IMG/VR virus record: IMGVR_UViG_3300042399_001709
Coordinates: 16,784-80,783 of that record
DNA length: 64,000 nucleotides
Origin: a virus
Strand: one strand, 5' to 3'
Under the pieces are notes generated by a model. It was not told the origin of the DNA. It did no database searches and was given only the letters and a program-made list of their open reading frames with translations. A program made the position numbers and the translations under genes. Shown in pieces: positions 1,269 through 26,518 of this stretch (positions are counted from its first letter, which is position 1; the number at the start of each line of letters is the position of its first letter).

Positions 1269-1562
1269 ATGGCAACCCTTAATCAAGTACGCCCAACGCG
1301 CGTACTCACCCTCAACGACCTCGCGGACATTGAGGATAAGTTTGGAGGCCTTGACAAGGTCGACCTTACCAAGTTCACTGTACTTCGTTATATCCTTTGG
1401 CTTGTCCTTCGCAAGGATGACAACAAGATGGATGAGCGCGCGGTAGGTGACAAGTTCTCGCTCGATACAATGCGTGACGAAATCGACAAGGTGCTTCGCT
1501 CAAGCGGTCTCATCGGCAACGATGAGGGTGGCGTTTCCGAGGGAAAAGCTCCGGAGGCGTAA
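1269..1562 (+). CDS. tail assembly chaperone (gpG-like)
   Basis: 97 aa, CAGGAG SD, between tube and TMP genes; ends with an in-frame G GGA AAA slippery heptamer. Confidence 0.75.
   Translation: MATLNQVRPTRVLTLNDLADIEDKFGGLDKVDLTKFTVLRYILWLVLRKDDNKMDERAVGDKFSLDTMRDEIDKVLRSSGLIGNDEGGVSEGKAPEA
1541..1547 (+). other. programmed -1 frameshift slippery site (G GGA AAA)
   Basis: XXXYYYZ heptamer in the correct phase; the -1 frame is open from 1541 into the ORF at 1592-1825. Confidence 0.8.
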
Positions 1563-1591
1563 GCTGGGGGGAGATCGACTGGGGGTCGATC

Positions 1592-1825
1592 ATGGCTTCT
1601 TATGCAGATGCCTTTGGTTATACCCCAGCCGAGTTCATGCAACTTACGCTTCCACAACTTAATGCATACGCAAAGTATGTTGAGAAGCGTGATGAAGCGA
1701 TGAAGGGCGAAACCAAAAACACCTCCGGTAAAAATAAGGCGAAATTCGCCGATGGTTCTTCAGGGATGAAAACAGTTGGGTCTCTGGAGCAAATGATTTC
1801 GGTCTTCGGAAAGCCGGGGGCCTAG
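1592..1825 (+). CDS. tail assembly chaperone gpT-like part (expressed as a frameshift fusion)
   Basis: FGYTPAEFMQLTLPQL motif typical of gpGT C-termini; in the -1 frame of the upstream ORF. Confidence 0.7.
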   Translation: MASYADAFGYTPAEFMQLTLPQLNAYAKYVEKRDEAMKGETKNTSGKNKAKFADGSSGMKTVGSLEQMISVFGKPGA

Positions 1826-1840
1826 CGGGGGGTAAAGGCA

Positions 1841-4800
1841 GTGGCCGAGATTGATAATGTAGCACGGGTTGGCATATCGCTTGACTCTGCCGCATTCCAG
1901 GACGGTGTAGCCCGTACGCTCCGCGACATTGACAGGCTTCTCAGCGGCCTTAAGGCCTTGCAGTCTGCGAACAAGCAAATCTCCCTTGCGTCTGGCGGCC
2001 TACTCGGCAGCGGATCGAAGTCCCCCGTTGCCGGATTTGCAAAAGACATTACTCGCACGGCGATACCGGCTCTGCGCGACATGGAACGCAATGCGATCCG
2101 TGTCGGCGGGGCCGTTCGTCGTTCTATGGAGGAAATGTCCCGACTAGCCGCAGCTTCGGAGCGTGTCCAGCGCCAAGCTCAGCGAGTCTCCTCCCCATCC
2201 TCCTCAGGCATAGTTCAAGACGCCAGGATTCGCCGTGGCCAAGAGGCAAGCCTACGAGCCTTGATGGCAAAGGCCGAGCGCCAGGGGTTCCGCATTGAAA
2301 AGACCAATGGCGGACACTTTGCTGCCTACCCGCCAGACAAGTCTAAGCAGATAGTCTTCTTCCCATCTACCGGAGGCGACCGCAGAAACGTTCAGAACAT
2401 ACGCTCGCAGCTGCGTCGATCTGGGTATGTTGATGACGTGGAGAGCGATAGGCCTGCCCGAGCACCTAAGCGTGCCGCAACACCAACGCCAGTCCCAACC
2501 CAAAGCTTTGTTGACCCGCGCAGCACTAGTGGAAAAATAGAGGCAAGGTATGTTGTTCGGGCACTTGAGGAGCTTGTTACTTCACGATCCAGCGAATACC
2601 CACAGTATCTCCAGCCACGTGCCCGTGGTGGCGCTGGCCGAGCTGAAAGCGTTGCCTCTCGCCAGCTCATTGAGGAGATCTCCGGTCGATTTGACCCAAC
2701 GCAGATTTTCTTTAAAGGCCCAAACCTTGCAGAGGGAATTGTTGCAACCGTTCGATCTGAGGCAGCTAAGGCTGCATTGGTTCTTTCTGGCAATGCCCGT
2801 ACGCTTGGCATGCAGCAACTTGCTTCCACCCCGGCAGGTCAGAAGCAAATCAATAAAGCAGTTGCGGAGTTTATCACCGCTAACCCGGAGGCACTTGGCG
2901 GTACGGCTGGCGTAGCAAGAGCCCTTAAAGAAGCTTTAAAGATCAAAGAGTCTGGCAGGACTCCAGTTATAACGCGAGAGCTTGTAACAAGCCTTGAAGG
3001 CCTTGGCCCACGCGAGGGCGCACGCCTTGGCCACATGCTTAACACTGGTACCGGCATGACCGAAGCAGAAACGGCGCAGGCGATTGCTAGGACTATCGCG
3101 CGTATCCCTGGCGGCTTTGAGCGCGGAAACGTTGGCGCCACAATTCGCAAAGGTGGACCAGCCGTTGAGGAGCTAAAGAAGCTCGTTCTTGCCGAGCTTC
3201 CAACGTCGGAGATACGTGCAAAATACCAAACCAAGAAGGGGGAAACCTCTAGCCCAGCGATAAATACGCTCATGGAGAGGGTGCTGCTCTCTACGGCATT
3301 TGGCAACAACGCCGCAACCGAAAGTATGATTGGCAAGATTCTGGAAGGTGAGCGCGGCGGCATTCCAGCGCCGCTACTAAGAGAACTTCACAAGGCGGTT
3401 GGGCCACAGCTGCAACTTCGAGGCAGGATTGGGGCTGGAGAGATCCCAGCCGGAATGGACCCGATTTACAATGCGCTCCCAGAGGCAATTGAGCTGATCA
3501 ATGCTGCCCAGGCGGTGGCCGGGGGCGCAAAGAGGATGGGAAAGGTTGCTGGCAATCTTGCAGAAGCTAGAAAACTTATTTCCGCGCAAACAGCTGCCTT
3601 TGGAGAGCCGTCCGCCCAAGGCGTTGAGCTTGCCTCAAGCATTCTTGCAGCTGGCCGGGGCCTTCCTGCATTCTTTGCCGGCCTTTCTACCTATGGCGGA
3701 CGCGCAACGTCTGCAACCCAAGGCGGCATGGGGCTTGACCCAAGCGCAATCACAGCAGACCCACGTGTCGCATTGCAGATTGCACAAGAGGCAGCCGCCA
3801 CCATGCTTGCCGGACTCAAGTCCGGCTCGAGCAAGGGCGCTAAGGGCGTTGAGCGTCTTATCCAAGAGGCCGTTGAGGGCGCAATCCAGGCTTCTGCAGC
3901 CCGAGACCCTGGATATCTTGGCTCAGCGCCTCCAGCTTCTAGCGGCGGCGGCGGATCTGGCGGAGGGAAAAAGCCACCGCGCAGTAGCAGGGGAAATATG
4001 GAAGACCCTCCAGAGGAGGAGCCAGAAGAGCCTATTGCAATGCGCCGCCCAGAAAGCTCGCGCGCCTATCGCCTTAATGAGCGAGCCGTCGGCACTGCTC
4101 GCGGCTCAGCAAAGGCCCGAGCAGGCGGATATCTTCCATATGAAGAGTCTAGCCCCGCCCGCCAGGCGCAGCTAAATACAAACCTAACCCGGGGATATTT
4201 AAAGCTTACCGAGGGTCTTATCAGGGTTTCTGAGCAGGGAAGCCATCCCTTGGGGGCAACGCATATTGAGGGCATGCTTAAAGAGCTTAATAACGCATAC
4301 TCCCTTATGGGCTCTCGCGGGCTGCAGGTTCCAGAACTTTCCCAACACATGGCGATTGTCAGCAGCGTTCTAAAGAAACTTGGGATTGATCCTGAAACTG
4401 TTCCAAATTCAGTTTCTGGCGCGGCCATACCAGGGTCGGCTGCCGTCACAACAGCCGCCACAACGGCGGCCACAACGGCGGCCACAACGGCGGCCACAAC
4501 GGCGGCCACAACGTCGGCAACATCCGCTGCGACCACCGCTGCAAATCAAGTAGCGACAGCAACGGCTGCCACAACGGCTGCTGCAATTGTTGCCAAAACA
4601 CCTGCAATGCAGCGCTTTGAGCGCCTTATGCTCGGTCGTAGCGTCGCCATTGGGCCGCGCACCGCCAACACAAAGTTTATGACAGAGGCCGTTGAAGGCG
4701 TACTGCCAGGTATCACCGAGGCGTTTAAGCCCTTCCTGGAAAAGAACTTTGCATCTCAGATTTTGCAACACTTTAAGGCGTCGTTCCGTGGGCTACCTGG

Positions 4801-7800
4801 CGAGAGTGAAGGTTTGCAGGGGCAGACAAGCACCGGAGCATCTTCCGGGTTCCTGGAGATTGGGAACCTAAACCGAGGCTCGGGAGCCATTCTTCGTACT
4901 GCAATCCATGAAATTGCGCACGGTGCATTTGAGCGGATGAGAGAAGGTGGTTATCAAACGCCGGCCACGACAATGCATTACGGGCCAAAGGGAGAAAAAC
5001 TTGGAGAAAAGAGCCCGGCGACAATTCTTGCTGCTGAAGGTGGCAGAGGAATTAGCCATGCTGACCCAATGTTCTACCAACTCCAGGCAGAGATTTCAAA
5101 AAGAACCGGTGGCCTCCTTGCCAATCTTGCATTCCACCAATATGCCCAATCGCGGCCGCAAGGCTTCAATACCCCCGGGCTTGGCGTTGGCATTGCCGCA
5201 GCGCAACTCACACCACATCTTCAAGAGCTAGCATTTAAAACTAAGCCCTCGCTTGTCTCCGCCTCAACCCTCTTTACTGAGTTTGCTACCAAGATTCATG
5301 AAACCGCAGCAAAGGTGCAGGGTGGTGGGGCTCCAATCCAAGAGCTGCTTGCCCAAGTTTCGGCAGGAATTGGAGAGCTTGGCAAGTCTTCCAAGATGTT
5401 CCCAAAGACCTCGTTCCTTGAGATTGCTTCTATCCTTTCTGAAACCATCCGATCATACGGAGAGGGCGGCATTCGGTCTGGGGCTGCCAAGCAATTCCAG
5501 GGCCTTAACATGCCGTTTGAACAGGCCCTGCAGCGTGCGTTTATCCAGGCTACCGGCTCGCTGCTCAAGCCAGGAAGCGAGCTTCGTGGCATAACTGGTA
5601 TCTCCAATCGAACACCGGAAATGATGGCCGCGTTCATGGCCAACGCATCAGAGGCCGAGAAGCAGGCTGTTGCCATGGCCATCAACCCAGAAGCATTTGA
5701 AAAGATTATCAAGGGGCAAAAGCCCGGAGTAGCCGCAGATGATCCCGGGGTTCAGCAGCAGCTCAACGAGCTTACAAAGACCATCCTTCAGGCTACCGTT
5801 TCACAGATCAATGCCGAAATTGCCCAAAGTGGCGCGCTAGTACAGAAGGGCAGTCTCGTTGGCATGCCACTGCCAATAACCCGCCGTGGCGGTTTCTTGC
5901 CTGCCGGTGCCTACCCAAATGAATCTGGCCCTCAGTTCCGCCTGCCAGGCGGTGAGCCTGTGTACAACATTCCACCTGGAGGTTCACTTGTGCCGCTCAG
6001 CGGCCAACCTATTGATTTTGTTGAGAGGGCTCGCCAAGAAGCCGAGGCTCGTGCGGCCCGAATGCGAACTGCATCAGCGTACGGGCGCAGTATATTCGAG
6101 CGTTTTATCCCAGGTGTTGGGCAATACCGAGAGGCCCAAATAGAGTACGGCGGCCAGGCATTACGCTCTGCAGAAACCAAGCAGCAAGCGGTTGCGGAGT
6201 TCCAAAATAATGCCAAGGCGGCAGAGGCAGCCAGAGCCGCCAACAGCCGACTTAATCTTGTCATCCAAGATGGTCGCGTTCAATTTGGTCAGCTAGCAAA
6301 TGTTTTGACCCAGGCAAATACCGGATTGACACAATCCGTAACCGGCGTTCTTTCGCTTGGTCTTTCGTTTGCCATTGGCCAGCAGGCAATCTTTGCCTTT
6401 GCCGGCGGAATCCAACACCTCATGGGCGGCATCATTGGCTTTAACGCCATGCTTGAGTCCGCCGGAGTTGGATTTAATACACTTTTCAAGAATGCAGGAC
6501 GCAGCGTAAGGGAAGCACAGCGGGAAACAGAATCAACAATTCAAACCCTTAAAGACTTTGCCAACGTCACAAACTTCAGGTTCGGTGACCTTGAGGTTGC
6601 AGCCGTCCGCATGCAAGCATTCGGCTTCGAGGTTGACTCAGTCAAGGCAAAAGCGCAAGGGCAAATGCCGATTCTTGAGGCATTTACAAATCCATACTCA
6701 ACAAACGGTCTTAAGGAGTTCCGTGGAGCGCTTGTAAACATTGGAGATGCCGTTGCGGCACTCGGTGCCGAAGACGATAAGCTCCGCCGAGTAACGTACG
6801 CACTCGGACAAATGAACTCTGCTGGACGCGTCTATCAAAACGACATGATGCAGCTGGCAAACGCTGGTATCGCCGGATATGAAATTCTTGCTAACGCTTT
6901 GCTTGCGGAGCTTGAGCGAACTGGGCAAACCGCTAGCGCAACATACAAGAAACTGCTAAACCCACAGTCCGCCATCGAAGAAATCCGCCGCCTTGCTCGC
7001 ATCGGCGCCCTTTCCGGCCCCGGCGGCGTTCAGGCGATCCTGCAGGGGTTGGAGGCAAAATACGGCGGTGGAATGAAGGCATTCTCCAGAACCTTCCAAG
7101 GAGCAATGACCACGGTTGCGGATACGTCCCAGTCGCTTGTTGCAACAGCGTTTAATCCACTGTTCTCGGTTATGCGAGACCTTCTTGCTGGAACAAAGGC
7201 TCAAGAGTTTAACGACGGCCTTGCAACATTCCTCCAGGGCGAAGAGGCAATAAAAGCATCTCAACTATTCGCACGTTCAGTTAAAACTGTTGCGGAGGCA
7301 ATCCGATCTGGCCTCCCAGAGGGGCTTAGTGTCGCCGGCGGCTTTATGGATGCCGTGCTTAAGACACTTGGGGGCATCGGCGGCGCAGTAACGGCCAGCG
7401 GGGGTCCTCTAAACGCATTTATTACCTCCTCGGTTTCTGGATTTAAGGCAATGGCCGAGATCCTCTCTAATGATGTTATCCGCAAGCTTGGCGCATCGAT
7501 TATTGTTGCCAGGGCCCTGTTTGGATTTATCAGTAGCAACCCGCTTGTAGCAACTCTTGGAGCCAGCACGGCCCTTGTTGGGTTCCTTGCTAACGCCTAT
7601 GAAAATAACCAGTACGGCGTTCGCTCTGCTTTTGACCGAGCTGCCCCGGGCATCCTTAGCTCAGCGGATTCAATCGCCAATTCGGTAATCCCAGGAGTCT
7701 CATCAGCCGCAGCCGCATCAATCGGGACGCTTGCCGCTACAATTGCCTCGGCACTTTCCACCGCAATGCCAGTCATTGACGGAATCTTGGCCCTCTTTGC

Positions 7801-10800
7801 TGGGATAATGAAGGTTATTGAGCCTCTTGCTCCGCTCTTTGGTGTGCTCTTTGCTGGATTCGTCGGCGGAAAACTTCTGGTTGATGGCCTTGCCCTTGCA
7901 ATGACAAAGTTTGCAAGCGCTACTGCCAGGTCCGCAGAAAAAATGGAAAAACTCAAAATCAGCATGTTTGCATTCAAGGCCCTTGGTGCCGTAGAAAGCT
8001 ATGGCCTGGAGCGTCTTGTTCCTATCCAAAGGCAAGACCAAGACGGGAACCTTGTCGCATCTGGATTCGGCGTTGACGATACGCCGGGAAAAACCATCAC
8101 ATCTCCGGCGCTTGTGCGCGCCATTGCATTCATAGAAGCCCTGGGGGCCTCTAAGGGTGGTCGAGAATTTATTGCGCCATCCGGCGGGGTAGATTCAGTT
8201 CTCAATACTGGCGTTGACATAGATTACGCAGCTCAACGATTGGCGGAACTAAAGAAATACAGCATAGACGACCCAAAGGGATACAATGACTTCCTGGACA
8301 GCGTAGGCGCTAGCGAGCGCGCGCAAATTGAGCAAGCACTTGCCGCAGGACTAGAAAGCGTTACCAACAGAGTTAGGGGTTTTGGAGAAAGACTTTCCGC
8401 AGCAAGCGGAAAGCTCGCTAAGCTCGGCATTATTATTGATGCAGTTAAGTCTCGCATGGGCATGCTGGGCGGAATCCTAAGCGGTTTGGGCATGTTCGGC
8501 AGCATTGCCTCTAACCTTCTCGGTCTTGACGAGAGCATTTCTACTGTCTTTAACAATATGATGATGGTTGGAATAGCAATAGAGTCCTTGCACGGCGCTT
8601 TCATTGCTCTTACTGCAGCCACAAACGCGCAGATCGCAGCGCTTACCTTTGGTATTGCTGGTGCGGTCATGGCGTTGGCCTTCCTTACTGGAGAGCTTTC
8701 AAAGGCAGCGCAAGCGGCATTTAACAGTAACCCAATTAACACAAGGGCAAAAGTTGTTACCGACACAAGGACCCGCCTTGAGGGCCAGGTTGGAAAAGAC
8801 AAGGCAAAGGAGATGTTCCCGGAGCTCTATGCCGAAGAGCGCGGAGTCCTTGATGACCTTGAAACGTGGTTCAGGCGCACAGTTGCCCTCATGGGAGCAA
8901 ACGCTGACCCTCAGGGCGCTGCTGCCAGATACGACACGCAACTTAACAGAGAATTGGTTGCGGACAACGATCCATCACGAGCTCAGCAATGGCTCCGAGA
9001 CAACCCTGCGTGGTCCATGTCCACAACTGGCATTATGGGCCAACTGGAACAAGTGCAGCAAGACAAGATCAAGCAAATGCTTCGAGAGGGGTTCTCGCCT
9101 GACGAAGTAGCAAAAACTATGAACTTGGATCAGGCATATGTTGAAGAGCTCTATGCAAAGTGGTATGGCGCTGGCGATGCCGAGGCAACAAAGTACATCA
9201 GCCTGCTTACCAAAGCCCTAGACGCCACCGGAGAGCTCCTGCAGCAGGCGCAAGAGGCAATGCAGAAGGCAATGGAAGCCTTCCAGACACCGCTCAATCG
9301 CCTCATGTCCCGAGCACAAGTCGCCATCCAGGCACTGTTTGAAGAAGAAAAGAAGCAGCTCGAAAACGAGCGAATGAATGCTCTTGCAAACGTAGAGGTT
9401 CTCTACAACGGTGAAATGATCCGCCTTGGCGTCCTTGAGCAGCAGTACGAGGCGTTGCAAGAGCAAGCAAAGCAGATGGAAAAGCTGCAGCAGCTTGAAG
9501 AGTCTAGGACCAAGGCATCAGAGGCCGCCCTTGACATGTTTGATGCTAGCGTTGATCCGCTGGAGCGCGCCCGCGCCGCGCGAGACGCCGCACGTGAGCT
9601 ATTCAAAGATGAGCAGCGCGCACGTCTTGACTCAATGGGGGCCGCCATCCAGTCCGGCAAGACCAGCTCTGCATACGTTGGGACTACCCAATTCTACGAC
9701 GAGAAGGCCAGGGCGCTTGAGCTCGATCAGGCAGAGCGCAGCCGCGTCATGCAGGAGCGCATTGACGACCTGCTTAAGAAGATCCAGGAAGGAAAGATCA
9801 GCAAGTCCAAGGCATCTACCGAGCTTAAGGACATCTTTGGCGACGTTGGCCTTGACCTAGAGGTTGCTTCTGCCCAAGGTTACTCCTTCATGGAATCGTT
9901 CTCCTCTGGCTTCATGGCTGCGTTGCAGGCAAACATTAACTCGACCTTTGCCGCCCTTCCTAAGGCCATTACTGCCGCCCTAAACGTCCTGTCGCAATCT
10001 GCTGCGTACAAGAAGGCACAAGACGCGCTGAACGCCATCATGAACCCAGACTCGGAAACAAGAACCATCAAGGGTCAGACCATGGTGGACTTGCTTAAGG
10101 CACGTATTTCTGATGCTAAGAACCTTCAAACAAAGCTCCGCGAATACTATGCCCTGGTTAAGCCAGAGGTTGGCGGAAACGACCCAGAGCGGGTAAAGCG
10201 CTTTAACCAAATTGGCCAATTCCTTGCGCAGCTCGAGCGCATGCAGAATGTCTATACCCCGGGCGGCAAGTACACGAGCGGCCAATACGACGATTTGAAT
10301 ACTGGGTTTATGGAGCAGTTCCAGACCCTCCTTCAAATGGTTATGGCTGGTCTCTCTGGCTATAACCCAGACAGGAATAGGGCTATGGGCGGGTCCCTCT
10401 CAAGCGCCACCAGCTATATGGTTGGCGAGCGCGGACCAGAGATGCTTACCATGTTCCAGCGTGGTGGTGGGTACGTCACCCCGAACCACAAGCTCCCACC
10501 GGCCCTTAAGTCGTCCGCTGGCGCCTTGCGAGCCGGCACATACGGACGCGCGGTTGGTGGCTATGTTGGATGGGGCAAAGGCATCATGCCTCAAGACAGC
10601 ACCGGAGATCCAACGCCAGGACCAACGCCGGAGCCATCATGGGAGCCAACCCCGACACCAACACCGACGCCAACTCCTACCGGAACGCCATCCCCGACCC
10701 CGACACCAACACCCGGTCCAACGCCAACAACCGGCGGCGATCCGTGGGGGCTGTTCCCGTTTAATTTTAGGATGTATACCAAGTGGATCAACTCGGTCAT

Positions 10801-18200: not shown

Positions 18201-20611
18201 TAACCGTTGGGGAAACAGCAATCATCTTTGTGTCATACAACCCAGCCGCACTGCATATGTATCCTGCAGAGAGCGGTTCAGAAACTTTTGCAGGGTCAGG
18301 ACTGCTAACAATTCAAAAGAATGATGAAACCCCACAGACACAAACAGTGTCAACCATAGCAGTCACTGCCTTTGGAAACTTCACTGTTGGTCACGGTTAC
18401 ACAAATGCCGGAGTGGCAACGTCATTCTTTGACGGGCTGATTGGCAACATCTACGTGCTTGATCGTGTTTTGCGAAACGCCGAGCGTGATCAGCTAGTGT
18501 CGTGGATGGCACATTACTTTACGATTTCCGACCTTTTAAGCGAGGACAACGATTATCGATATCTTGCAGACCATCCTGGAAAGATAGAGGTTAATCGGGC
18601 TAAAGAGCCGTTTAATGCAATGACGCTTCGCCAGGCCATGGACTATATCTGCAAGAAGACTGGATCGCAATACTGGATTGACGCCAACAAGAACCTTCAC
18701 TACCAGCGAAGAGACGTTAAGAACCTTGTAGAGAATGCAACTTACGAGGACAAGTTTGGCAATGCTAGCTCAAACGAATGGAACTTTGGCGGCTCGTTTG
18801 TCCTAAGCAACCGCTCATCTGGGCCATACGGCTACGGCTATGCCGCTACGTGCGCTGGGTCAACGGAGTCAACTGCTAGATCGCAATACTTTACCGTTGC
18901 AGCAAATGAAGTGTACTTTGCCTCGGCTCTAATGAAGACGTCAAACTCAGAAAAAAGCCGTTTGAAAATTCGTTTTTACGATGTTTCTGATGCGCAAGTT
19001 GGGTCAGATAAAACTATTGGTGCTGGAGTAAACCTTAATAACTCCTGGCAGAAGATGTGGGGGATGGTTAAGGTTCCTGGAACTGCAGGAATCGTAAAGG
19101 CCGCCTTGATCTTCCACCACACAAGCCACAGCAGCTCTTATACCGACTTCTACGCAGACCCAAAGGTTGTAAAGATTACCGCAGAGTACGGATTTGCTGA
19201 CTATGGTATTGCGCCTGGATCAAGTGTTGAGATGCTGTTTGATCCTGACCTTAATGCCATCTTGCCAATGAAAACATATGAATCGCCAGAAAACATTAGC
19301 CAGGGCGGAACGCAGGCTAACAGGCTTTATCTTTACGGCAAGGCCACAACAGTTGACCAATCTAACAGCGTTATCACCCCGTACGTCAAGAGTGGTCAAG
19401 TTATCCGGTACACCTTTGACTATGTTCAAGGGGTTTGGGACACACACGGGAAAATTGTTGAAGCCTCTAAGGCAGATACCGCGCCAGAAAGCGTGGAGGA
19501 TGCCGTCTTGTCTGCCAGCTCTTTCTGGGCAGAGAATGGCCAAAGCATCGAGTCATACGAATTCTCTCACTCAAATAACGCTTCAGCCGGCAGGCTTACC
19601 GTTGGGTCGATTATTCCATACCTTTGGAGTGAGGTCGGAATCGTTGAGCCTCTTGTGGTAAAGAGCCAGACCGTTACCATTATTGGCGGGGAAATCTACT
19701 ACAGCGTGCAACTTGCAGGGGAGCCAGCGTTCCAAAAGAACGCCATTATCCTTGTGCAAAAAGAATATCTCACAGAAAATCTTGGCACCGGCAAAATTAA
19801 ATTTATGGCCCCGACTAAACTTCGTAACCTGGTTGTTCAAACAGTAGATAACGACGGAAAAATAACAACTATAGATCAAAATGTTCAGCTTTCATGGTCT
19901 ATTGACACTACAAACCCAAGCAACAAAAGCATTACGGGCTACGAGATTGAGCGGCGAAGGCAAGAGCTAAAAAAGACCTCTTTTAGCAAAACGAACATGA
20001 AAGCTGGTGTCACTGTTCTGACGCGAACTCCCGCTGTGGCTGGTGGAATTTCTGTTGTTTCATTGACGTTTGCTAGCTCAACGGGTATTGACGTTGGTGC
20101 ATATATTCAAATTAAAGGTGGGCAAATTGGCAAGCAAACAACAAAAGGCCCTAAGAACCCCTCATTGGCCGGATCACACGAAGTAATCAGCGTAACAAAC
20201 TCTGGCAAGACTATTAAATTTAACCAATATGCTTCGGCAACTCATGGCATTACAGAACTTAAAGCAAAGCAAACAAAGGATATTCCGTCTATAGTTGTCT
20301 CCTGGTACGAGAACGTGGCCAAAACCGCTGAAGCTTGGGCACCGCTTGTTACAACAAGGTCGCAGACTTATACTGATGACGGCGACACCAACACGGCACA
20401 GGTTAAAGGCCCTGGCCTTGGCATTAACTACCGATATCAGTATCGCGTAAGGGCCGTTTCCTCAGACATAACTACTGGCGTTAAGCTTTCTGGTCCTTGG
20501 TCGTATGTTCCACCTGGATACATTAACGCCTCAGCGCAGTCCGGATGGATCTATATTACCGACAGCCTCATGCTTTCGGGTGTCGTTGAGCCAATAATTG
20601 GAGATCAATAA
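15239..20611 (+). CDS. large minor tail/host-recognition protein (repeated beta modules, LamG-like, CBM-like and FN3-like regions)
   Basis: Directly after TMP; repeated ...AH.F..G..V.V....YNG...I..V modules; FFDGLIGNIYVLDRVL...ERDQLVSWM LamG-like end; YRYQYRVRAV FN3-like. Confidence 0.75.
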   Translation: MNYTGTITVKIKPKLLNHTPVGDGFFDITRRISFSEGGADSSFTFTESSDGSLGEAKFDMFTMFPLSITDWSSYSGATVDDKVQNALNDHTFDFEIPPRTEIQVYEDATLLFGGVVMEVARVRAGGTITTNVTCSDYTALLDEIVIDRYKAPFETYDYQLIRGGYETSADKNGVKITKIINGSSGGGSPTRVITVTLEDAHDLMVGQKVNIDQTSNYNGTWTVASILSLIGYTATNSSTYAGPVSVTNAARAGSTATITVGTHAFIVGDTVQVALATGPTGYAALNGTYKITSVVANTSITYTTTTSGTVTSGAATGTVQIPDEKSGRSTPWTISFFEDVNKTDPYSGVSIAHGINYDSPTSTTGYVVTEGSDWRFSPINYVPDAQFPEKLGAKIFLPLSEGKSDITRAAADPRSLDSDERLRLYRLDNEIKEMYVLTSIGAYDAASNYLDITTISDHNFESGQILALGNVDYSRVGDYSAGFRANKQSETVLRIETNVDPGLSLRSAAITGATSDGTFATYTCNNTFLIGDPIAVSGITESGGTTGSFNVSFTIIEDSTPTTFKVRNSTDRTYTSGGTAYASFVALNRVQSVGAFEKRLKLISGQRLDTITTLYYDSATSYFNVGDVIHVNGSTTYDGRFTVTEVGSAPGNSGVPIRIGAITRTNNVAQVLLTDKALSISRDASAHAFDRGEVVDVTLPSPYTSFSGTAKIITGVGAPGSNLTASNIYYASTGSNQKYTNLTKAQKLASSITFAEKTLSYVKFIDNRADTANSPISVSAGAYISIPYHSWDAVSGGSRTAATPSTSFITMPNDSIDYMGGRQSVDFEASEFQGIGTSKYAEIAYVSRASNVVTIRTKAPHAFIEGETVTVAASAPYTSLNGSYAISDATAGTFTFSLAGSNITEAAATGSATSVGTGFYAAGRKMSCICVVKLESLPSSGEYRTVWHHGSITTGQRRELQINDAGAICFMTINNAGSTQRFTTTLLLTVGETAIIFVSYNPAALHMYPAESGSETFAGSGLLTIQKNDETPQTQTVSTIAVTAFGNFTVGHGYTNAGVATSFFDGLIGNIYVLDRVLRNAERDQLVSWMAHYFTISDLLSEDNDYRYLADHPGKIEVNRAKEPFNAMTLRQAMDYICKKTGSQYWIDANKNLHYQRRDVKNLVENATYEDKFGNASSNEWNFGGSFVLSNRSSGPYGYGYAATCAGSTESTARSQYFTVAANEVYFASALMKTSNSEKSRLKIRFYDVSDAQVGSDKTIGAGVNLNNSWQKMWGMVKVPGTAGIVKAALIFHHTSHSSSYTDFYADPKVVKITAEYGFADYGIAPGSSVEMLFDPDLNAILPMKTYESPENISQGGTQANRLYLYGKATTVDQSNSVITPYVKSGQVIRYTFDYVQGVWDTHGKIVEASKADTAPESVEDAVLSASSFWAENGQSIESYEFSHSNNASAGRLTVGSIIPYLWSEVGIVEPLVVKSQTVTIIGGEIYYSVQLAGEPAFQKNAIILVQKEYLTENLGTGKIKFMAPTKLRNLVVQTVDNDGKITTIDQNVQLSWSIDTTNPSNKSITGYEIERRRQELKKTSFSKTNMKAGVTVLTRTPAVAGGISVVSLTFASSTGIDVGAYIQIKGGQIGKQTTKGPKNPSLAGSHEVISVTNSGKTIKFNQYASATHGITELKAKQTKDIPSIVVSWYENVAKTAEAWAPLVTTRSQTYTDDGDTNTAQVKGPGLGINYRYQYRVRAVSSDITTGVKLSGPWSYVPPGYINASAQSGWIYITDSLMLSGVVEPIIGDQ

Positions 20612-23601
20612 TGTTTGACAAGATTTCTAGCGGCAAGATTTACGGGAATACTGGGAATCAATTTTCTGCTATTGAGATTGACGGAGACGGCGTTCTTATT
20701 AGGAATGCTGCCGACGAGATAGACTCGTCTGGAAATCTTGTGTCGGCTGGCAGCGACGAGGTGCTTTCCGCTAGCCGATCTACCGGTACTACAATTAATG
20801 CCAGCTACATAAAAACAGGCGTGATTGACGCCAACCTTATGCGCGCCGGCCTTATCCAGACCGTCCCTTCCTGGAACACCAAGTGGTATGGGGCCCCAGA
20901 AGACCATGCCGCAGTGCAGATGGGCTTTACCGGCGGCTCAATTGCGGCAACTGCCGTCTCAACCGGCACTGGCACCGTTAGCCTTACGCTCCCTGGCGGG
21001 CATGGCCTAATCACCGGCGACTACGTCCGGGTATCCGGCCTGTACTTCACTACCGGCACCCTGCTAGGCGGCGTTGGCCTTAACCTACCGACCAATGGCC
21101 CACTTGACTACGCCGCAGCAACAGTCGCCACAAACACCCTGACCTACAGCAAGGCCGACATCACCAGCGGCCTCACTGCCTCTACCGCCTCCATTGTCTA
21201 TGTTGGCAAGGCGCACACAATCACTGGCGTTGTTCGCTCCTTTGACGAGCCTGAGAACCCAGCAGAGCTTAGCACTGTGGTCGTGACTACGAGCGCGGCA
21301 CATGGCTTTTCCGTAGGAGAATATGTCGAGCTAGTAAATGTCGCCCCGACCATCGACGGCGTGGCATACATTACCGCAGTCACCAGCACCACCTTTACCT
21401 TTAAGCAGCGCTTTGGTGCGGACATTGAGCTTGACCTTGCGGAAGTTGACCCGGTGCTTCCGGACCTTGGCGCCCCAGTGGCCATCAAGGTGCTGAAGTC
21501 CTACACCCAGAATGCCGACGGCTCTATTCACATTACCTCCGGCACGGTTGACTCCACGCTCATCGTCGGCGAGATTGCAGCCACAGAAATTACAATTGGC
21601 TCCGGAGAAGGAGTTGTGCGCGTTGGCAGCTACCCAGATGCTATCACCCCAACCTTCCAGGGAATTTGGGCAGGAAGTGCCAATCCGTCTACGGCTGAGT
21701 TCTCAGCCAATACATCCGGAGCCGTAACAGCAAGCAACCTCACGGTCACTGGTGGCAGCATCACCATTGGAGATTTTAGTCTTAGCACGGGCGGCCAACT
21801 GACTGATGACCTGGTGCTGCAGCAAACACGAATTACCAACGATAGCGGCGTAACCATTATTGACACGGATAGCGATGGGGAGAAATCAACGCTATTTGGC
21901 GGCGCTGCTTTAAGGGAAATACAAGCTGGCGTAGCAAATGGCTCATTTGCAGAACCTCCGCCAAGCCCGTATGCAAACGTTGGCGGCGCAAACAAGCTGC
22001 CGTATTGGACATTCACCGACGTGAATAGTGCTGGCGCAATTACCGCCGCGATTGTTGCGGATGCTGGAGCAGCGTCTGGAAATGTGCTGCGATTCACGGT
22101 CGCTAGTGGCACGCTGACTGGTAAGAGCGCAACGCTGACGCGCTATGTGCCTGTCGCATCATCTGCATCTCGCTCCTTCTCGTTTTACGCTGAGGCAACC
22201 TTTGACAACGCCACCAACAGCACCCAAGCCAATGCCAAACTAACTTGCGAGTTCTACAAGTCAGACGGAGTGACAGCAACAGGCACTCCCTTCGAGTCTC
22301 TCCTATACGGATTTAATCTGCTGCAAACACCGACAGGAATTACTGCTCCAGATTTGTGGGAGACCAGCCCTGACCTTACAGATAGCACCGCCCCTGCCGA
22401 TGCTGCATATCTGAAGGTCACTATCACTATTGCCACGGTTGCAACGCAGTCCGCGAATCGCGTTGTGGACTTGACAGAAGTTCGCGTTGGCAACGGCTTG
22501 CCGGAGTTGATCTTGACCGACAAGAGCACACCAACAAACTTGCCTGCTTACATCATCAACGACAACAACGAACTCTCAATGTACAACGGCAGCCAAAGCG
22601 GATATGTCATTGTTGGAGACGAGACGCTTGTGGCTGGGGCTATCAGCGCGACGGTCACAAGCCTAGAAGACGTAATTATTGAGGGTTATGTTGCAACTTC
22701 AATCAATTCTGTAATTGGACCAGTCAACATTACTGCCGCAACAGCAGTCGACATTACTGCGCCAAGCGGTGTTGACGTCAGCAACAACCTAAACGTTGAT
22801 GGAACAATCGGCGTTCTTGGCAGCATCAACATCGGTGTATCCGACACAAGCACGGTAGGAGACATTACCTTCAAGGGCGGCAACGGCGGCTCCATCCGTG
22901 CGTTCAGCGCGACGGCGGGAAACGATAGCCTAGGAATCTACAACACCGCAGGAACAGACTTCACCAACCTTGTCGCCGAAAGTTTTTTCCCAGGCGGGCA
23001 GGGATCATTCCGACTCACGCATGACGGCAACTTCGACTTCAACGATACGGTCGACGTGACGGGAAGTATCACCGCTTCGTCCAGCATCGTCGGCTCAAGC
23101 TTCCAATCAACAGGTTCCTTGACGGCTCTGAACGCTTCAGGCGGTGGCGATATTACATTAACTGGAGCAGACACGAGCGTACCCATCAGCGGCAACGGCG
23201 AGCTGTTGGCGATTGCGAACACCACTACCGCAACAACGAACAGCGCACGATGGGTGCTGACCAGCGGCAGCACATACGCGCTGCGCCGCGACTCATCAAC
23301 TCGCCGCGTAAAAACAAATATTGTTCAGGCTGATTCAGCAGTGCTGGCGGCAGCTAAAAACCTGCGAGCGGTTCACTACGAAGCACTTGAAAAGGACAAT
23401 GAGGGGAATGTGGTTCCGAGTGGCAAGCACACGCTTGGACTCATCGCCGAAGAAATCGCTGAGGCTGGGCTTGGCTGCGCCGTTACATATGATGGGGAAG
23501 GATTGCCGGACGGATACGACGAGCGCGTCATTATCGCGGCCCTCCTACACCGGCTCAATGACCTTGAAGCGCGCCTCGCAGAACTCGAAGGCAATGCCTA
23601 A
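20611..23601 (+). CDS. tail fibre/spike with C-terminal Peptidase S74-like intramolecular chaperone
   Basis: SSTRRVKTNI...GLIAEEI...YD...L..RLAELE C-terminus; Gly/Thr-rich beta repeats. Confidence 0.8.
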   Translation: MFDKISSGKIYGNTGNQFSAIEIDGDGVLIRNAADEIDSSGNLVSAGSDEVLSASRSTGTTINASYIKTGVIDANLMRAGLIQTVPSWNTKWYGAPEDHAAVQMGFTGGSIAATAVSTGTGTVSLTLPGGHGLITGDYVRVSGLYFTTGTLLGGVGLNLPTNGPLDYAAATVATNTLTYSKADITSGLTASTASIVYVGKAHTITGVVRSFDEPENPAELSTVVVTTSAAHGFSVGEYVELVNVAPTIDGVAYITAVTSTTFTFKQRFGADIELDLAEVDPVLPDLGAPVAIKVLKSYTQNADGSIHITSGTVDSTLIVGEIAATEITIGSGEGVVRVGSYPDAITPTFQGIWAGSANPSTAEFSANTSGAVTASNLTVTGGSITIGDFSLSTGGQLTDDLVLQQTRITNDSGVTIIDTDSDGEKSTLFGGAALREIQAGVANGSFAEPPPSPYANVGGANKLPYWTFTDVNSAGAITAAIVADAGAASGNVLRFTVASGTLTGKSATLTRYVPVASSASRSFSFYAEATFDNATNSTQANAKLTCEFYKSDGVTATGTPFESLLYGFNLLQTPTGITAPDLWETSPDLTDSTAPADAAYLKVTITIATVATQSANRVVDLTEVRVGNGLPELILTDKSTPTNLPAYIINDNNELSMYNGSQSGYVIVGDETLVAGAISATVTSLEDVIIEGYVATSINSVIGPVNITAATAVDITAPSGVDVSNNLNVDGTIGVLGSINIGVSDTSTVGDITFKGGNGGSIRAFSATAGNDSLGIYNTAGTDFTNLVAESFFPGGQGSFRLTHDGNFDFNDTVDVTGSITASSSIVGSSFQSTGSLTALNASGGGDITLTGADTSVPISGNGELLAIANTTTATTNSARWVLTSGSTYALRRDSSTRRVKTNIVQADSAVLAAAKNLRAVHYEALEKDNEGNVVPSGKHTLGLIAEEIAEAGLGCAVTYDGEGLPDGYDERVIIAALLHRLNDLEARLAELEGNA

Positions 23602-23660
23602 CCTTGCCCTATTCCGTATGATGTGCTAGCCGAGAGGCACATATATGAAAGGGGTACCCC

Positions 23661-24395
23661 ATGAAATTTAAGGTTAAGTCCCAGCTTGATCACGAGGAAA
23701 AAGGTGGGATTCTCGACGATTGCGGCCCGTCTTCTATGGCTGCAGCAGTGTCTTGGGCGTTTAAGTACGCTCCGGGCAAAGATTTTTCCGCCGCAGACGG
23801 CATTGCCGCCAAGGCAAAGGCTACCGGCTTTGTTGAAAAGCAAGGCGTTAGCGATAACGGCTCAACGCTTGCGGACCTTATTAAGACCGCACGGGTTCTT
23901 GGTGCCGAAGCCCGCTGGGCAACGGACTGGAACGACGTCATCAACTCCGCCAAGGCCGGTGCGGCTCTAGGCGTGTGGGTTGAGCAGCCTGCCGGCTATC
24001 CTAAGGGCCTAGAAGTTTCCGCGTGGCATGCCAAGTGGCAGCGCTGGTGGTGGGTCAAGCAGAAGCAACCTACTCGAACGTACGGCCACATGACTGCGGC
24101 TGTCTACGACCCAATCGATGGCTGGCAGTGGGCGTGCCCAACGCGCTCCGGCAAGGGTGCCGAGCAGTTTGGCGTCAAGATTGATGAGGCAACCCTCAAG
24201 ATCCTTGCCGACTCAAAGCGCGTAAGCAAAAAGCACGTTGCACCACCGCATAAGCATGTTATTATCATTTCAGCACCAAAGGGTTGGGTCGCGCCTAAGC
24301 CTGCGGCAGCTCCTGTAGCCCCAGCGGCACCAGTAGCACCAGCGCCCGTAACGGCGCCCGTCAGTCCGGCAAAGTGCCCGACTTGCGGTAAGTAA
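23661..24395 (+). CDS. putative endolysin, peptidase C39-like (papain fold)
   Basis: SQLD...DDCGPSSMA catalytic Cys motif, GHMT His, YDP; Pro/Ala-rich tail; next to a holin candidate. Confidence 0.65.
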   Translation: MKFKVKSQLDHEEKGGILDDCGPSSMAAAVSWAFKYAPGKDFSAADGIAAKAKATGFVEKQGVSDNGSTLADLIKTARVLGAEARWATDWNDVINSAKAGAALGVWVEQPAGYPKGLEVSAWHAKWQRWWWVKQKQPTRTYGHMTAAVYDPIDGWQWACPTRSGKGAEQFGVKIDEATLKILADSKRVSKKHVAPPHKHVIIISAPKGWVAPKPAAAPVAPAAPVAPAPVTAPVSPAKCPTCGK

Positions 24396-24409
24396 TAGAA
24401 GGAGTACAC

Positions 24410-24805
24410 ATGAGCGCCATTAAGAACGCAGTTCTATGGATCATGGCTAACACGGGTATCGACGAGATGCTCCTGGAGGCCGCACGCGCCTTTATCGCAA
24501 CGTCGATTGCCGTTGCGCTTGGTCTTGGCATCCCGCTGCTTGATATTTCAGGCGGGGATTTCCGAACCGTAGTATCGGCTGGTCTGGCCGCCTGCTTGCA
24601 GGTTGTCGTCCGCGCCCTGAACCCTGAAGATGCCAAGTTTGGCGTTGGCAAGGCAAAGGTCGCCCGAGCTGATGAGAAGGCTGCTGCCGAGAGCACGGCT
24701 CACATTACCGGTAGCGCAATTGACACTGACGGAGATGGAATCGCAGACGAGCTTGCTGGCAGCCTTGCCGGTGAGAACTTTGAGGATGACAGCCGCCAGG
24801 GATAA
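24410..24805 (+). CDS. putative holin
   Basis: Two hydrophobic helices, RALNPED.KFG motif, AGGAG SD, follows the endolysin candidate. Confidence 0.6.
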   Translation: MSAIKNAVLWIMANTGIDEMLLEAARAFIATSIAVALGLGIPLLDISGGDFRTVVSAGLAACLQVVVRALNPEDAKFGVGKAKVARADEKAAAESTAHITGSAIDTDGDGIADELAGSLAGENFEDDSRQG

Positions 24806-24818
24806 TCGTTATAGGGTA

Positions 24819-24864
24819 AAATAAAAGAGGAGGGGCCCCGTGAGGCCCCTCCTCTTTTTATTTG
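24819..24864. terminator. bidirectional intrinsic terminator
   Basis: AAATAAAAGAGGAGGGGCC-ccgtga-GGCCCCTCCTCTTTTTATTT between convergent operons. Confidence 0.85.
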
Positions 24865-25054
24865 CTAGAAATTACTTAGTCGTCTTCGCGCCAGCGAAGC
24901 GGTCCGGTAACAAGCCATGCACCGGAAAGGGCAAGCAGGATCGAGCCCACTACGTCGCGGGTCTCGCCCTCTGGAAGCACTGCCCAAGCAATGGCCAAGC
25001 CAAAGATTGTCCAGCCGCCAGCGATCACATCGTTGATTGCGTTTTTAAGCATGT

Positions 25055-26518
25055 TTAGTTTCTCCCTCTTTTTCCATTAGAAGACGAGCCACTTGCGCCG
25101 CCTCCACCTGAACTACCCGCGCTTGCGGCCGCCGCAGCTGCGGCTGCAGCTTGGGCTACTTGTGTCACCACGACAGCTGCAACCACGACTGGCGCAGCCT
25201 TCTCCCTCTCCTCTGAGCTGAGATCCTTGCCGAGATTGGTAACCGCAGTGACGGCTTTACCGACGTTTTCTACAGTATCACCGATAGTGCTGGCAATAGC
25301 TTCCGCAGCTTCTCCGATTGCCTCGCTTACTGCCTCTACTGCAGCGCCCGGATCAATTGGTCCAGGTGTGTCAGTAGGTACAGGGCTGGGATCAACAGAA
25401 GGGGCAGGAGAGTCCGTAGGGGTGGCCGTCGGTTCGGGTGTTGGCTCGGGTGTTGGTTCATTGGTTACCTCCGGGCTAGGGCTGGGACGCGGGGTCGGGG
25501 ACGGCGTCACAGAAGGCTCTGGCGTGGGTGTAGGAGCCACGCTAGGGCTTGGTGTTGGTGGTTCTGGTGTCGGCGTAGGGGTTGGCGTAGGCGTTGGCTC
25601 TGGGGTCGGCGTTGGGGTTGGCTCAGGTGTAGGGCTCGGGCTTGGCGGTGGCGGGGCCGGAACAAACACGGAAACCGTTGTTGAGATGGGGGAATAAATG
25701 CCTAGCGTGTCGTTGTCAGCCCTGATCCAAAATGTGTAGGTTTGATCAGTGCCGCCGGTAATGGCAAAGACGTTGCTGCTAATGCCCATATTGGTTTCGC
25801 TGGAAGCGGCAGCCCAGCCCGCAAGGTCCCCGGTGGTCCAGAACACTCCGTACCGCTCAATGTCGGTGCCGCTTGCTTCTGGAGCATTCCACGTCAGATA
25901 AACATTCCCATCGGTGTAAACGGTCACCATAAGACCGGTTGGCGCGTTCAAATACGGGTCAGGTACCGGGGTAGGGGTTGGCTCCGGAGTCGGGGTTGGC
26001 GTTGGCTCCGGAGTTGGCGTTGGTGTGGGGGTGGGGGTGGGCTGCGGGGTTGGCGTCCATGTTGCTGATGGTGTTCCCGGCGCAAGCTCGGCTGCAAAGT
26101 TGCTGATTAGGTAGTAGTGGTTGCCACCAAAACGGTCGGCCGCTGGGTCGCCGCAGCAGACGCCAGCACGGACTCGATACTCGCCAGCGGGCAGGGAGAT
26201 GCGAATTGTTGAAGCAAGAGAGTAGCCGCCAGTGTGCTCGGTAAACGAGTCATCGTTGGCAGTAAGGAGCGTTCCAGTGCCGTCATAAAGCCAGAGCATT
26301 GAGTCAACTGTTCCGGGGCACCAGGGTGCAGTGGTGTCGTCGCACAAGTCGGTCCACAGGTGAAGCTCGCCCTGCTCTGGAAGATTAATCCAGAAATCTT
26401 GCGTTCGGTCGACATAGTTGTTTTGACTTCCAGATGCCGGGCCGGCAACCAGGCCATATGCAAGCGTCGCCAAGATAAGCCACAAAGTGGCGATGGTGGT
26501 CATTAGCTTAGTGTTCAT
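25055..26518 (-). CDS. secreted/membrane protein with PPC-like and FN3 domains and Pro-Thr linkers
   Basis: N-terminal signal peptide; DSMLWLYD...NDD...LPAGEYRV; APTGL...LTWNAP...YTFWIRADN; (PT/PE)n; hydrophobic C-terminal helix. Confidence 0.75.

Follow-up and report, generated by a model that had tools for sequence, protein, structure and literature searches.

The 64,000-nucleotide stretch of DNA analyzed here (the window) consists of bases 16784-80783 of the 80,783-bp virus record IMGVR_UViG_3300042399_001709 in IMG/VR, for which the CheckV completeness is 92%. An uninterrupted open reading frame (ORF) at positions 1841-15235 of the plus strand starts with GTG and encodes a Cys-free protein of 4464 amino acids (aa). 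In this report, we describe this protein as a tail tape measure protein (TMP) in which a core of conserved length is surrounded by long non-TMP blocks that are gained, lost, and reshuffled among related phages. A preliminary description, made from the sequence of the window, had placed the gene in the canonical position for a TMP. Directly upstream of the gene is an ORF of 97 aa (1269-1562) that matches a PHROG tail protein. This ORF ends with GAG GGA AAA GCT, which contains the slippery heptamer G GGA AAA at 1541-1547, and the -1 frame contains no stop codon between 1526 and 1825. The layout of 1269-1825 is that of the G/GT tail chaperones of phage lambda. The gene is therefore in the canonical TMP position, with a G/GT-type pair upstream and large tail and fiber genes downstream.

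The ORF product is a tail tape measure protein. The Pfam family TMP_3 was matched at residues 1625-1768 with an E-value of 1e-7 and 32.3 bits, which is under the cut-off of 41. PHROG TMP families were matched over residues 1621-2643 (PHROG 1686, E = 2.4e-11; PHROG 12798, E = 2e-7), and two PHROGs of TMP C-termini (8892 and 1538) were matched at residues 4368-4457. Annotated TMPs in 19 phage records were matched by tblastn at 21-27% identity. No match was obtained when the gene was compared with 50,697 phage records by megablast, when residues 225-1319 were compared with these records by tblastn at E ≤ 1e-3, or when the PDB sequences were searched with the whole protein by phmmer under an E-value of 0.1. 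A search for homologous proteins with residues 120-1400 among candidates of 2455-7812 aa gave 0 matches and was set down as uninformative.

The segments of the protein are listed in Table 1. The three low-complexity linkers that had been noted beforehand were all confirmed, at nucleotides 3878-3997 (GS, then PE), 4397-4618 (TTAA), and 10586-10771 (PT), and a further P/G-rich linker lies between the zincin-1 candidate and the TMP core. The first 125 residues are kept at the extreme N-terminus in the 21 sequences collected with a local jackhmmer search, distant giant relatives included. The core has hydrophobic helices at residues 1503-1522, 1879-2022, and 2263-2287, and its C-terminal half is long and helical.

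Table 1. Segments of the 4464-aa TMP and the upstream chaperone genes (nucleotide positions are those of the window)
Feature	Residues	Nucleotides	Strand	Basis
Tail assembly chaperone pair (G-like ORF 1269-1562, slippery site 1541-1547, -1 frame 1526-1825)		1269-1825	+	PHROG and frame inspection
Whole TMP ORF, 4464 aa	1-4464	1841-15235	+	ORF call; colinear ORFs in L002 and L003; contig bridging
Conserved N-terminal head	1-125	1841-2215	+	local jackhmmer, 21 sequences
HicA-like domain (probable), invariant G-H	~130-199	2228-2437	+	phrog_2089, sub-threshold Pfam, AF2, BFVD, alignment
DdrB-type ParB domain	225-345	2513-2875	+	Pfam, invariant motifs, BFVD, P1 DdrB profile match
All-helical region	346-690	2876-3910	+	AF2; co-inherited with ParB in 12 sequences; BFVD
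GS/PE-rich linker (GS, then PE)		3878-4045	+	composition (3878-3997); pLDDT < 50
Helical bundle	735-860	4043-4420	+	AF2, PDB fold matches, jackhmmer
TTAA linker with 12-nt repeat		4397-4618	+	composition; contig break site
Zincin-1 candidate	1005-1319	4853-5797	+	RT..HE..HG at residues 1019-1028; H.DP.FY at residues 1073-1079
TMP core	1481-2846	6281-10378	+	TMP_3, PHROG, tblastn, family comparison
First Pb2-type end motif, RAMGG...YMVGERGPE...PNHK, beginning at R2847; further RAxGG (RAVGG) at 2903	2847-2915	10379-10585	+	motif and T5 alignment
PT-rich linker		10586-10771	+	composition
C-cassette module H1	2977-3243	10769-11569	+	hydrophobic helices; ends at RAxGG 3244
C-cassette module X	3244-3700	11570-12940	+	begins at RADGG; alpha/beta part at residues 3494-3684; holds the putative ART-like stretch
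Zincin-2 (predicted)	3790-4070	13208-14050	+	FDWGD, HExGH 3896, E-x-[FY]-A-[DE] 4049; gluzincin-like fold
Glycine-zipper-like hydrophobic helices	4249-4314	14585-14782	+	sequence
Second Pb2-type motif, R4371-A-F-G-G...(YMV)GERGPE...PNHK, with 93-aa C-terminal piece	4371-4464	14951-15235	+	motif, PHROG, T5 alignment

The 4464-aa ORF is real and not an artifact, because colinear ORFs are found on other contigs, assembled contigs bridge nearly all of the gene, and the ratio of nonsynonymous to synonymous divergence (dN/dS) is low. Two separate contigs, about 80% identical, have ORFs that are colinear with the query, of 4455 aa in L002 and 4370 aa in L003, with 70-89% identity over residues 1-4464 except in the linkers. 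The nucleotide stretch 3500-13499 is fully present in at least nine lake-water runs. In each of three runs, two Logan contigs with 0 differences span the gene, from 1500 to 4486 and from 4484 to 15500; these three fully covering runs may be the source samples. The contigs covering 4484-15500 take in the PT linker and both copies of the end motif. The dN/dS values for the query versus L002 or L003 were 0.04-0.47 in all segments with a synonymous divergence (dS) greater than 0.1, both flanking blocks included. The gene is thus under purifying selection across its segments. A fourth run, not flagged as a source, holds a variant strain, and 13 of its 15 differences within nucleotides 7012-7129 are at third codon positions.

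We consider it very improbable that the ORF arose from a chimeric assembly, which the preliminary description had set against its own proposal, or from separate genes joined by a sequencing error. The suspicion comes from two sources. The Logan contigs break at a 12-nt tandem repeat (4460-4513) in all three fully covering runs, and the library protein P0002 begins at a Met equivalent to M2977. However, this is the sole break, and the sequencing depth on either side of the repeat is equal in the three runs. In addition to the bridging contigs and the colinear relatives, the dN/dS values are far under 1 throughout, and no Shine-Dalgarno-like sequence stands at a usable distance from the ATG of M2977. 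The repeat as a whole (4447-4522, 6.3 copies, 93% matches) encodes the TTAA linker; its copy number is uncertain and may vary, and this is the one uncertain point of the ORF. Short repeat unitigs at 4447-4522 were present at 1.2-4-fold the flanking depth, with values of up to 3-4-fold in two runs (X1 and X4). In run X12, the variant strain has an in-frame 3-nt insertion (CTC) at 2187, as judged from one low-depth contig, and no conclusion was drawn from the depth bin 9906-10372, which is uncovered in that run. An internal start at M2977 was considered and rejected since there is no usable ribosome-binding site. P0002 (1414 aa), whose start follows directly on the PT linker, may result from a truncated gene call or may come from a phage with a separate gene for the C-terminal cassette.

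The block that precedes the core begins with a probable HicA-like domain. The segment at residues ~130-199 matches phrog_2089, a family of unknown function, with an E-value of 4e-12. The score of the query against the Pfam family HicA_toxin (PF07927) is 14.2 bits, below the cut-off of 27, but the AlphaFold2 (AF2) model has the fold of phage HicA-like toxins. The order of elements in this model is helix-helix-strand-strand-strand-helix (alpha-beta-beta-beta-alpha), with a predicted local distance difference test (pLDDT) score of 66-84. In BFVD, the model matched the "HicA-like toxin" of Mycobacterium phage Thonko with a template modeling (TM) score of 0.78, a root-mean-square deviation (rmsd) of 2.1, and 34% identity, and that of Arthrobacter phage SilentRX with a TM score of 0.81, an rmsd of 2.2, and 26% identity, where the TM scores are normalized by target. 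In a Pfam scan of 46 module segments from the TMP and its relatives, which included 11 ParB and 13 HicA-like segments, HicA_toxin ranked second in frequency among the families, with 8 members and a best E-value of 4.5e-4. A glycine followed by His159 is invariant in 13 of 13 HicA-like sequences, and we take this histidine to be the catalytic one. The domain thus shares its topology and the invariant G-H with HicA toxins and with the stand-alone phage toxins; it differs from the latter in being fused inside a 4464-aa structural protein. The HicA-like segment of the preliminary description is therefore upheld at the level of the predicted fold. A HicA-like profile searched against the PDB sequences gave nothing significant, and the best match (E = 0.034) was a repeat artifact.

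The assignment of the next domain is firmer, and here too the earlier proposal of a ddrB-like ParB domain was borne out. The query alone scores 27.3 bits against the ddrB-like ParB family (PF18763), marginally under the cut-off of 27.6. In the scan of 46 segments, however, PF18763 was hit by 11, which are all 11 of the ParB segments supplied, with a best E-value of 6e-12. The motifs YP..QPR.R and SGN.R show no variation in any of 11 sequences, and a local ParB profile matched residues 63-129 of P1 DdrB with an E-value of 1.3e-8 in a search of that one sequence. On these sequence matches, residues 225-345 are a DdrB-type ParB domain. The ParB profile gave nothing significant against the PDB sequences (best E = 0.048). 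When the model of the N-terminal block was compared with BFVD, a "DdrB-like domain-containing protein" from an uncultured phage came first (E = 1e-14; 1257 columns at 28% identity), and matches of about 500 columns to DdrB-like proteins, listed without alignment ranges, may cover the helical region that follows the ParB domain, residues 346-690. Further matches were to DdrB-like, DNA-methylase, and SNF2-type phage proteins, with probabilities of 0.8-1.0, and models named "large polyvalent protein associated domain" are among the leading ones. Foldseek of the N-terminal block (a 1200-aa model) against the PDB gave long helical matches only, and the VIA lists were taken up by helical bundles or by the zincin. 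The structure models were made as two 1200-aa multi-domain pieces, and the HicA-like, ParB, zincin-1, and module X segments were barely compared with solved structures, so these results do not amount to the lack of a known fold.

Two HExxH motifs are present, at residues 1023 and 3896, with approximately 0.02 expected from composition, and both are conserved in the relatives. The preliminary description had named both as zincins; the two motifs stand, the fold of the second is supported by its model, and the first is at this point an invariant motif. The zincin-1 region is predicted to be a helical domain (pLDDT 70-89), and all 10 sequences compared, down to 29% identity, share RT..HE..HG and H.DP.FY without variation. 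A profile of this region gave nothing significant against the PDB sequences (best E = 0.39), and the best score in the ESM Atlas, 0.84, is at the level of chance.

In the N-terminal block, ParB and HExxH are arranged as in DdrB of phage P1. According to the sections available of Iyer et al. 2017 (PMC5512222), the DdrB-like ParB domain was defined from P1 DdrB and adjoins virion genes; it occurs in phage late-gene contexts and is tied to the P1 dar anti-restriction operon. The same source states that P1 DdrB undergoes processing to ~700 aa, that it is packaged, and that the processing is predicted to be the work of its C-terminal metallopeptidase. In P1 DdrB (995 aa), the ParB domain is at residues 63-129 and HExxH at 872; in the query, these are at ~252-324 and 1023. 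The ParB domain is thus followed in both proteins, in the same order and spacing, by HExxH some 770-800 aa further on. Both have a late virion-gene context, and extensive domain shuffling among relatives is common to the query and to the polyvalent proteins as well. P1 DdrB is, however, a separate protein packaged in the head, whereas the unit in the query is embedded in a tail TMP, and sequence homology is detectable only in the ParB domain. With respect to the several conflict-type domains expected of a polyvalent protein, the query has the DdrB-type ParB domain, probably the HicA-like domain, and two HExxH domains that lie outside assigned families; most of the remaining sequence is without a recognized domain.

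The cassette that follows the core contains the second HExxH motif, in zincin-2. The AF2 model of this extension has a mean pLDDT of 42, with residues 3801-4019 at 55-76, where strands are followed by the HExGH helix. When this part was compared with the PDB using Foldseek, there was no match at E ≤ 0.001, and all 50 of the listed matches were to M1-family gluzincins (IRAP, ERAP1/2, LTA4H, aminopeptidase N, and relatives) with E-values of 0.037-0.41 and probabilities of no more than 0.90. All 12 sequences compared share FDWGD and HExGH without change, and each of the 8 that extend far enough has E-x-[FY]-A-[DE] downstream. From the predicted fold and the putative glutamate ligand, we read zincin-2 as a gluzincin-type peptidase. 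A zincin-2 profile gave nothing significant against the PDB sequences (best E = 0.17). One PDB match with an E-value of 1.1 over the E-x-F-A-E region, to a fragment of anthrax lethal factor, is a curiosity only.

Module X holds the stretch that had been put forward as possibly ART-like, a proposal for which no support was obtained. There was no Pfam match of any kind in residues 2960-3720, and ART-PolyVal (PF18760) gave 0 matches in the genome at E ≤ 10. The nearest named cluster in the Atlas (ART-PolyVal/PBECR5) has a score of 0.76 for module X, a value often reached by chance, as is the best score of 0.80, and the fold at this stretch is of low confidence. A search of a representative library of 1.84 billion proteins with residues 2965-4164 returned 6 proteins only, all apparently fragments of related TMPs. 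The library protein P0005 (1853 aa) has module X before the PT linker and the hydrophobic module rather than after them. In the library protein P0003 (959 aa), an extra block of ~350 aa is found after zincin-2, between two GE[RN]GPE motifs. The cassette thus occurs in further arrangements in both proteins.

The two ends of the C-terminal cassette connect the protein with Pb2, the TMP of phage T5. Pb2 has a hydrophobic stretch at residues 1048-1071 and then ...PRAEGG...MGEHGTE...PN at 1127-1172, in which the arginine of RAxGG is R1127. Residues 1127-1151 of Pb2 are 48% identical to residues 4371-4395 of the query (E = 0.003), and Pb2 1127-1172 is 37% identical to query 2847-2894 (E = 0.017). 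The sequence RAxGG occurs in the query at residues 260, 2847, 2903, 3244, and 4371, which is 5 occurrences versus 0.42 expected, and at least 4 were found in 6 of 5000 shuffled sequences. The four-site pattern is also present in seven related loci (L018, L019, L020, L035, L059, L002, and L003). R4371 stands 93 aa from the C-terminus and follows the hydrophobic helices of residues 4249-4314, as the Pb2 site follows its own hydrophobic stretch. In the available portion of Linares et al. 2023 (PMC10038345), it is reported that Pb2 (1219 aa, in a 160-nm tube) is cleaved after R1127 in tail morphogenesis, that the C-terminal fragment Pb2C is kept in the cup of the baseplate hub and, on infection, is the first part to be expelled, passing into the periplasm for the presumed digestion of peptidoglycan, and that the hydrophobic stretch of the remaining Pb2 inserts into the outer membrane. 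The two proteins therefore have in common a hydrophobic stretch, R|A-x-G-G...G-E-x-G-x-E...P-N, and a C-terminal piece of ~92 (Pb2) or 93 (query) aa. They differ in that Pb2 has the motif only once and lacks both HExxH and an enzymatic block at the N-terminus, whereas in the query the duplicated motif brackets a cassette of ~1500 aa; cleavage is known in T5 only. By analogy with Pb2, we infer that the RAxGG sequences are maturation sites and that the C-terminal cassette is an insertion into a duplicated end of the Pb2C type. This homology also points to cleavage during tail maturation rather than to release by the protein's own peptidases, as had been suggested at first.

It could be argued from this parallel that the protein is an ordinary multifunctional TMP, in which the C-terminal cassette breaches the cell wall or membrane as in T5 Pb2 or in the TMP of mycobacteriophage TM4, the N-terminal block serves tail assembly or the handling of the DNA end, and neither is an effector of host takeover or anti-defense. 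The hydrophobic stretch, the R|A site, and the small C-terminal piece all have counterparts in Pb2. Zincin-2 is at the same position in 17 sequences, and neither ART-PolyVal nor MPTase-PolyVal (PF18818), the zincin hub domain of the polyvalent proteins, was found; the latter had 0 matches in the genome at E ≤ 10 and none in the Pfam scans, and neither zincin belongs to it. Domains that cleave peptidoglycan are established in TMPs in the literature accessible to us in part: the TMPs of TM4, Staphylococcus phiIPLA35, and enterococcal phages resemble the query in having an enzymatic domain that is used at entry. Those domains, as far as these partial accounts go, are of the lysozyme, transglycosylase, Rpf, or M23 type, whereas the query has a gluzincin-like fold and domains of the nucleic-acid type. 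The N-terminal block is what makes this explanation quite unlikely in our judgment. The HicA-like and ParB domains are without a known role in assembly, and the DdrB-type ParB domain has the anti-restriction and late-gene associations given above. The HicA-like fold matches stand-alone phage toxins, and a phage protein of this kind is toxic when overexpressed, according to the part of PMC11797047 that was available. The C-terminal cassette by itself, on the analogy with Pb2, looks more like an envelope-breaching end than a cytoplasmic effector.

The modular nature of the protein was established by comparison with its relatives, a check that the preliminary description had called for. The related set consists of 75 viral loci, of which 28 have complete ORFs with the GExGPE motif after the core. 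The core (query residues ~1480-2000) is matched in 74 of the 75 loci, and the exception, L010, ends before the core. The shortest complete TMP ORF has 1537 aa and the longest 5597 aa. Among the 28, the distance from the core to the first GExGPE is 1158-1772 aa (median, 1356), whereas the sequence preceding the core varies from 103 to 3025 aa. Four classes can be told apart by the length after the first motif: ~72-91 and ~260-270 aa, with one motif each, and ~830-890 and ~1540-1600 aa, with two motifs; the query, L002, and L003 belong to the last class. The core length is thus conserved within 1.5-fold, compared with a 3.6-fold spread in total length, and the small TMPs look like a plain form made up of the core, one motif, and ~78 aa.

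The flanking modules are distributed unevenly around this core. The ParB domain was found in 12 sequences by local jackhmmer and the HicA-like domain in 13, the latter being absent from four loci that retain ParB (L005, L007, L011, and L012). Zincin-1 is confined to the 10 closest sequences and module X to 6, with a different order relative to the PT linker in P0005. Zincin-2 always lies in the C-terminal part, between both copies of the motif where the ORF has two. For the query and L002, dS varies from 0.02 (ParB and zincin-2) to 1.6 or saturation (residues 735-860 and the middle of the core). These swings from segment to segment indicate that the sequences form a recombination mosaic, with recent exchange at the scale of single modules.

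It is not at all evident from its size that only part of the protein is the ruler, as had been argued at the outset from the very long tail that the full length would imply. A ruler of 4464 aa would be ~590-890 nm long at 0.13-0.20 nm per residue, and this is feasible because the TMP of Thermus phage P74-26 has 5006 aa and the tail of that phage is nearly 1 µm long (PMC10034513, in the portion available). P74-26 and P23-45 resemble the query in having a giant TMP, annotated with a metallopeptidase domain, in a siphophage genome of ~83 kb (83,319 bp in P74-26). The P74-26 protein was nevertheless rejected as a relative, since the sequences are unrelated (best E = 0.47), and it has no HExxH and no GExGPE. 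A better argument for a partial ruler is the core of conserved length in a family with a 3.6-fold spread in total length, which is suggestive but not decisive.

All 4464 aa may then constitute the ruler of a tail of ~600-800 nm, with flanks that are mainly length-adding helical material with a few motifs and no separate cargo. This we regard as being on the unlikely side, although it is the most serious of the alternatives. In addition to P74-26, it is favored by the N-terminal block, which is predicted to be mostly helical and has matches in the PDB to helical bundles only, by the relatives of up to 5597 aa, and by the scant Pfam content of their extensions. The embedded enzymatic parts of the TM4 and T5 proteins also belong to the TMP itself, in the sources available in part. 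On the other side are the narrow range of core lengths and the folds in the blocks that are not coiled coils (the HicA-like alpha/beta fold, ParB, and zincin), together with the low-complexity linkers by which the blocks are set off. The duplicated end and cleavage motif further suggests that the region past residue 2847 is an add-on to a complete TMP.

In the interpretation to which we give an even chance, the TMP is a scaffold whose end cassettes can be exchanged: a cassette of the Pb2 type at the tip end for breaching the envelope and the DdrB-like unit with the HicA-like domain at the head end, to be released last, next to the DNA. The fixed parts of such a scaffold would be the N-terminal head (residues 1-125), the length-conserved ruler core (residues ~1481-2846), and the T5-Pb2-type end (residues 4371-4464). 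Its variable N-terminal block (residues ~130-1320) would comprise the HicA-like domain and then a P1-DdrB-like unit of ParB, ~770 mostly helical residues, and the HExxH domain. The variable C-terminal cassette (residues ~2977-4370) would comprise hydrophobic helices, the orphan module X, the peptidase of predicted gluzincin fold, and the glycine-zipper helices. By analogy with T5 Pb2, the TMP would lie in the lumen of the tail with its C-terminal end in the tip, and the RAxGG sites would be cut during tail maturation. On infection, the C-terminal cassette would exit first, and its site of action would be the cell envelope, where it would work as a peptidase and by inserting into the membrane. 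The N-terminal block, next to the end of the DNA, would exit last and might act on the incoming DNA or on nucleic-acid functions of the host, as has been proposed for DdrB-type polyvalent proteins. The preliminary description, which had spoken of a ruler combined with cargo, is retained in its outline of a TMP with exchangeable non-TMP blocks around a conserved core and, in the N-terminal block, polyvalent-type domains (DdrB-type ParB and the spacing to HExxH). Its argument from length and its possible ART-like segment are not retained, and a role of the C-terminal cassette as a cytoplasmic effector is weakened.

Several observations weigh against this interpretation. The HicA-like and DdrB-type ParB domains need targets in the cytoplasm, which the N-terminus of a TMP would have to reach. 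The example of P74-26 means that the whole query protein may just measure a very long tail. The ParB stretch was folded with a pLDDT of less than 50. For the zincin-1 candidate, no family or fold match was obtained with Foldseek against the PDB, the Atlas, or profile searches, and the lists were filled by helical bundles. The alignments with T5 Pb2 are short, and their E-values come from pairwise searches. The RAxGG at residue 260, which is inside a ParB motif, is probably unrelated to the others. Finally, a Pfam search of 43,279 aa of non-core sequence from 18 relatives identified just 3 families in 26 pieces: ddrB-ParB in 2, PI3_PI4_kinase in 2, and SHOCT in 1.

A broader proposal would be that a widespread family of freshwater siphophages uses the TMP as a programmable injection carrier. 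The core (~1300-1800 aa) alone would measure the tail, and the end cassettes would be swapped between phages and cut free at RAxGG. The cassette at the tip would breach the envelope, and the ParB/peptidase unit with the HicA-like RNase at the head end would reach the cytoplasm immediately before the DNA and there counteract restriction or shut off the host. We think it unlikely that this holds in full. If true, polyvalent effectors would have a path through the lumen of the tail, separate from the head-packaged routes of MuF, portal, and Dar. Virion delivery of polyvalent effectors has so far been linked with head proteins such as MuF, portal, and P1 Dar, and TMPs are known to carry cell-wall hydrolase motifs only. 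This picture would change with a TMP family that has a head-proximal DdrB-type ParB domain with a HicA-like domain, and also with one in which the tip end has peptidase and membrane cassettes that are exchangeable and flanked by duplicates of a maturation motif. The natural variants of 1537-5597 aa around one core could also be used to test whether each residue of a TMP counts toward the length of the tail.

The nearest concept is that of TMP-derived effectors with swappable domains in contractile injection systems (CIS; PMC13277306). In the parts available of PMC13277306 and PMC11126660, the Sle1-type effectors are like the query in having a TMP-derived scaffold with exchangeable domains that is held in a tail-like lumen and ejected; they are cargo of bacterial CIS and not phage rulers, and the likeness is one of description only. 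In literature searches, no paper was found in which a TMP has a ParB or HicA domain. Neither "tape" nor "HicA" occurs in the main text of PMC5512222, and the supplementary lists of architectures in Iyer et al. 2017, which are outside this scope, may hold such cases.

The neighboring genes are those of a tailed phage. The TMP gene is followed by two large genes, 15239-20611 (1790 aa) and 20611-23601 (996 aa), and a separate small gene for a distal tail protein is not evident after it. The 1790-aa product has no Pfam or PHROG match, and the 996-aa product has a C-terminal Peptidase_S74 intramolecular chaperone domain (residues 896-952), which is typical of tail fibers and spikes. On the minus strand, 27713-29488 is a tail-fiber-like gene with a Phage_fiber_2 repeat and a match to a PHROG virion structural protein (E = 1e-44). 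The large terminase is encoded downstream of the tail module, at 31422-32864 on the plus strand, and is at most 21-27% identical to terminases in the phage collection. The terminase and tail-fiber genes confirm a tailed phage, which is without a close cultured relative, and we read the record as that of a freshwater siphophage of ~81 kb. Outside the window, the related locus L018 has a giant TMP ORF of 5498 aa (8786-25279) and, inside this TMP, two short matches to the catalytic-loop region of PI3_PI4_kinase, G005:C1:22545-22682 and 26223-26372, with E-values of 1.3e-6 and 1.6e-4 and scores of 23.5 and 16.7 bits, below the cut-off of 27.1.

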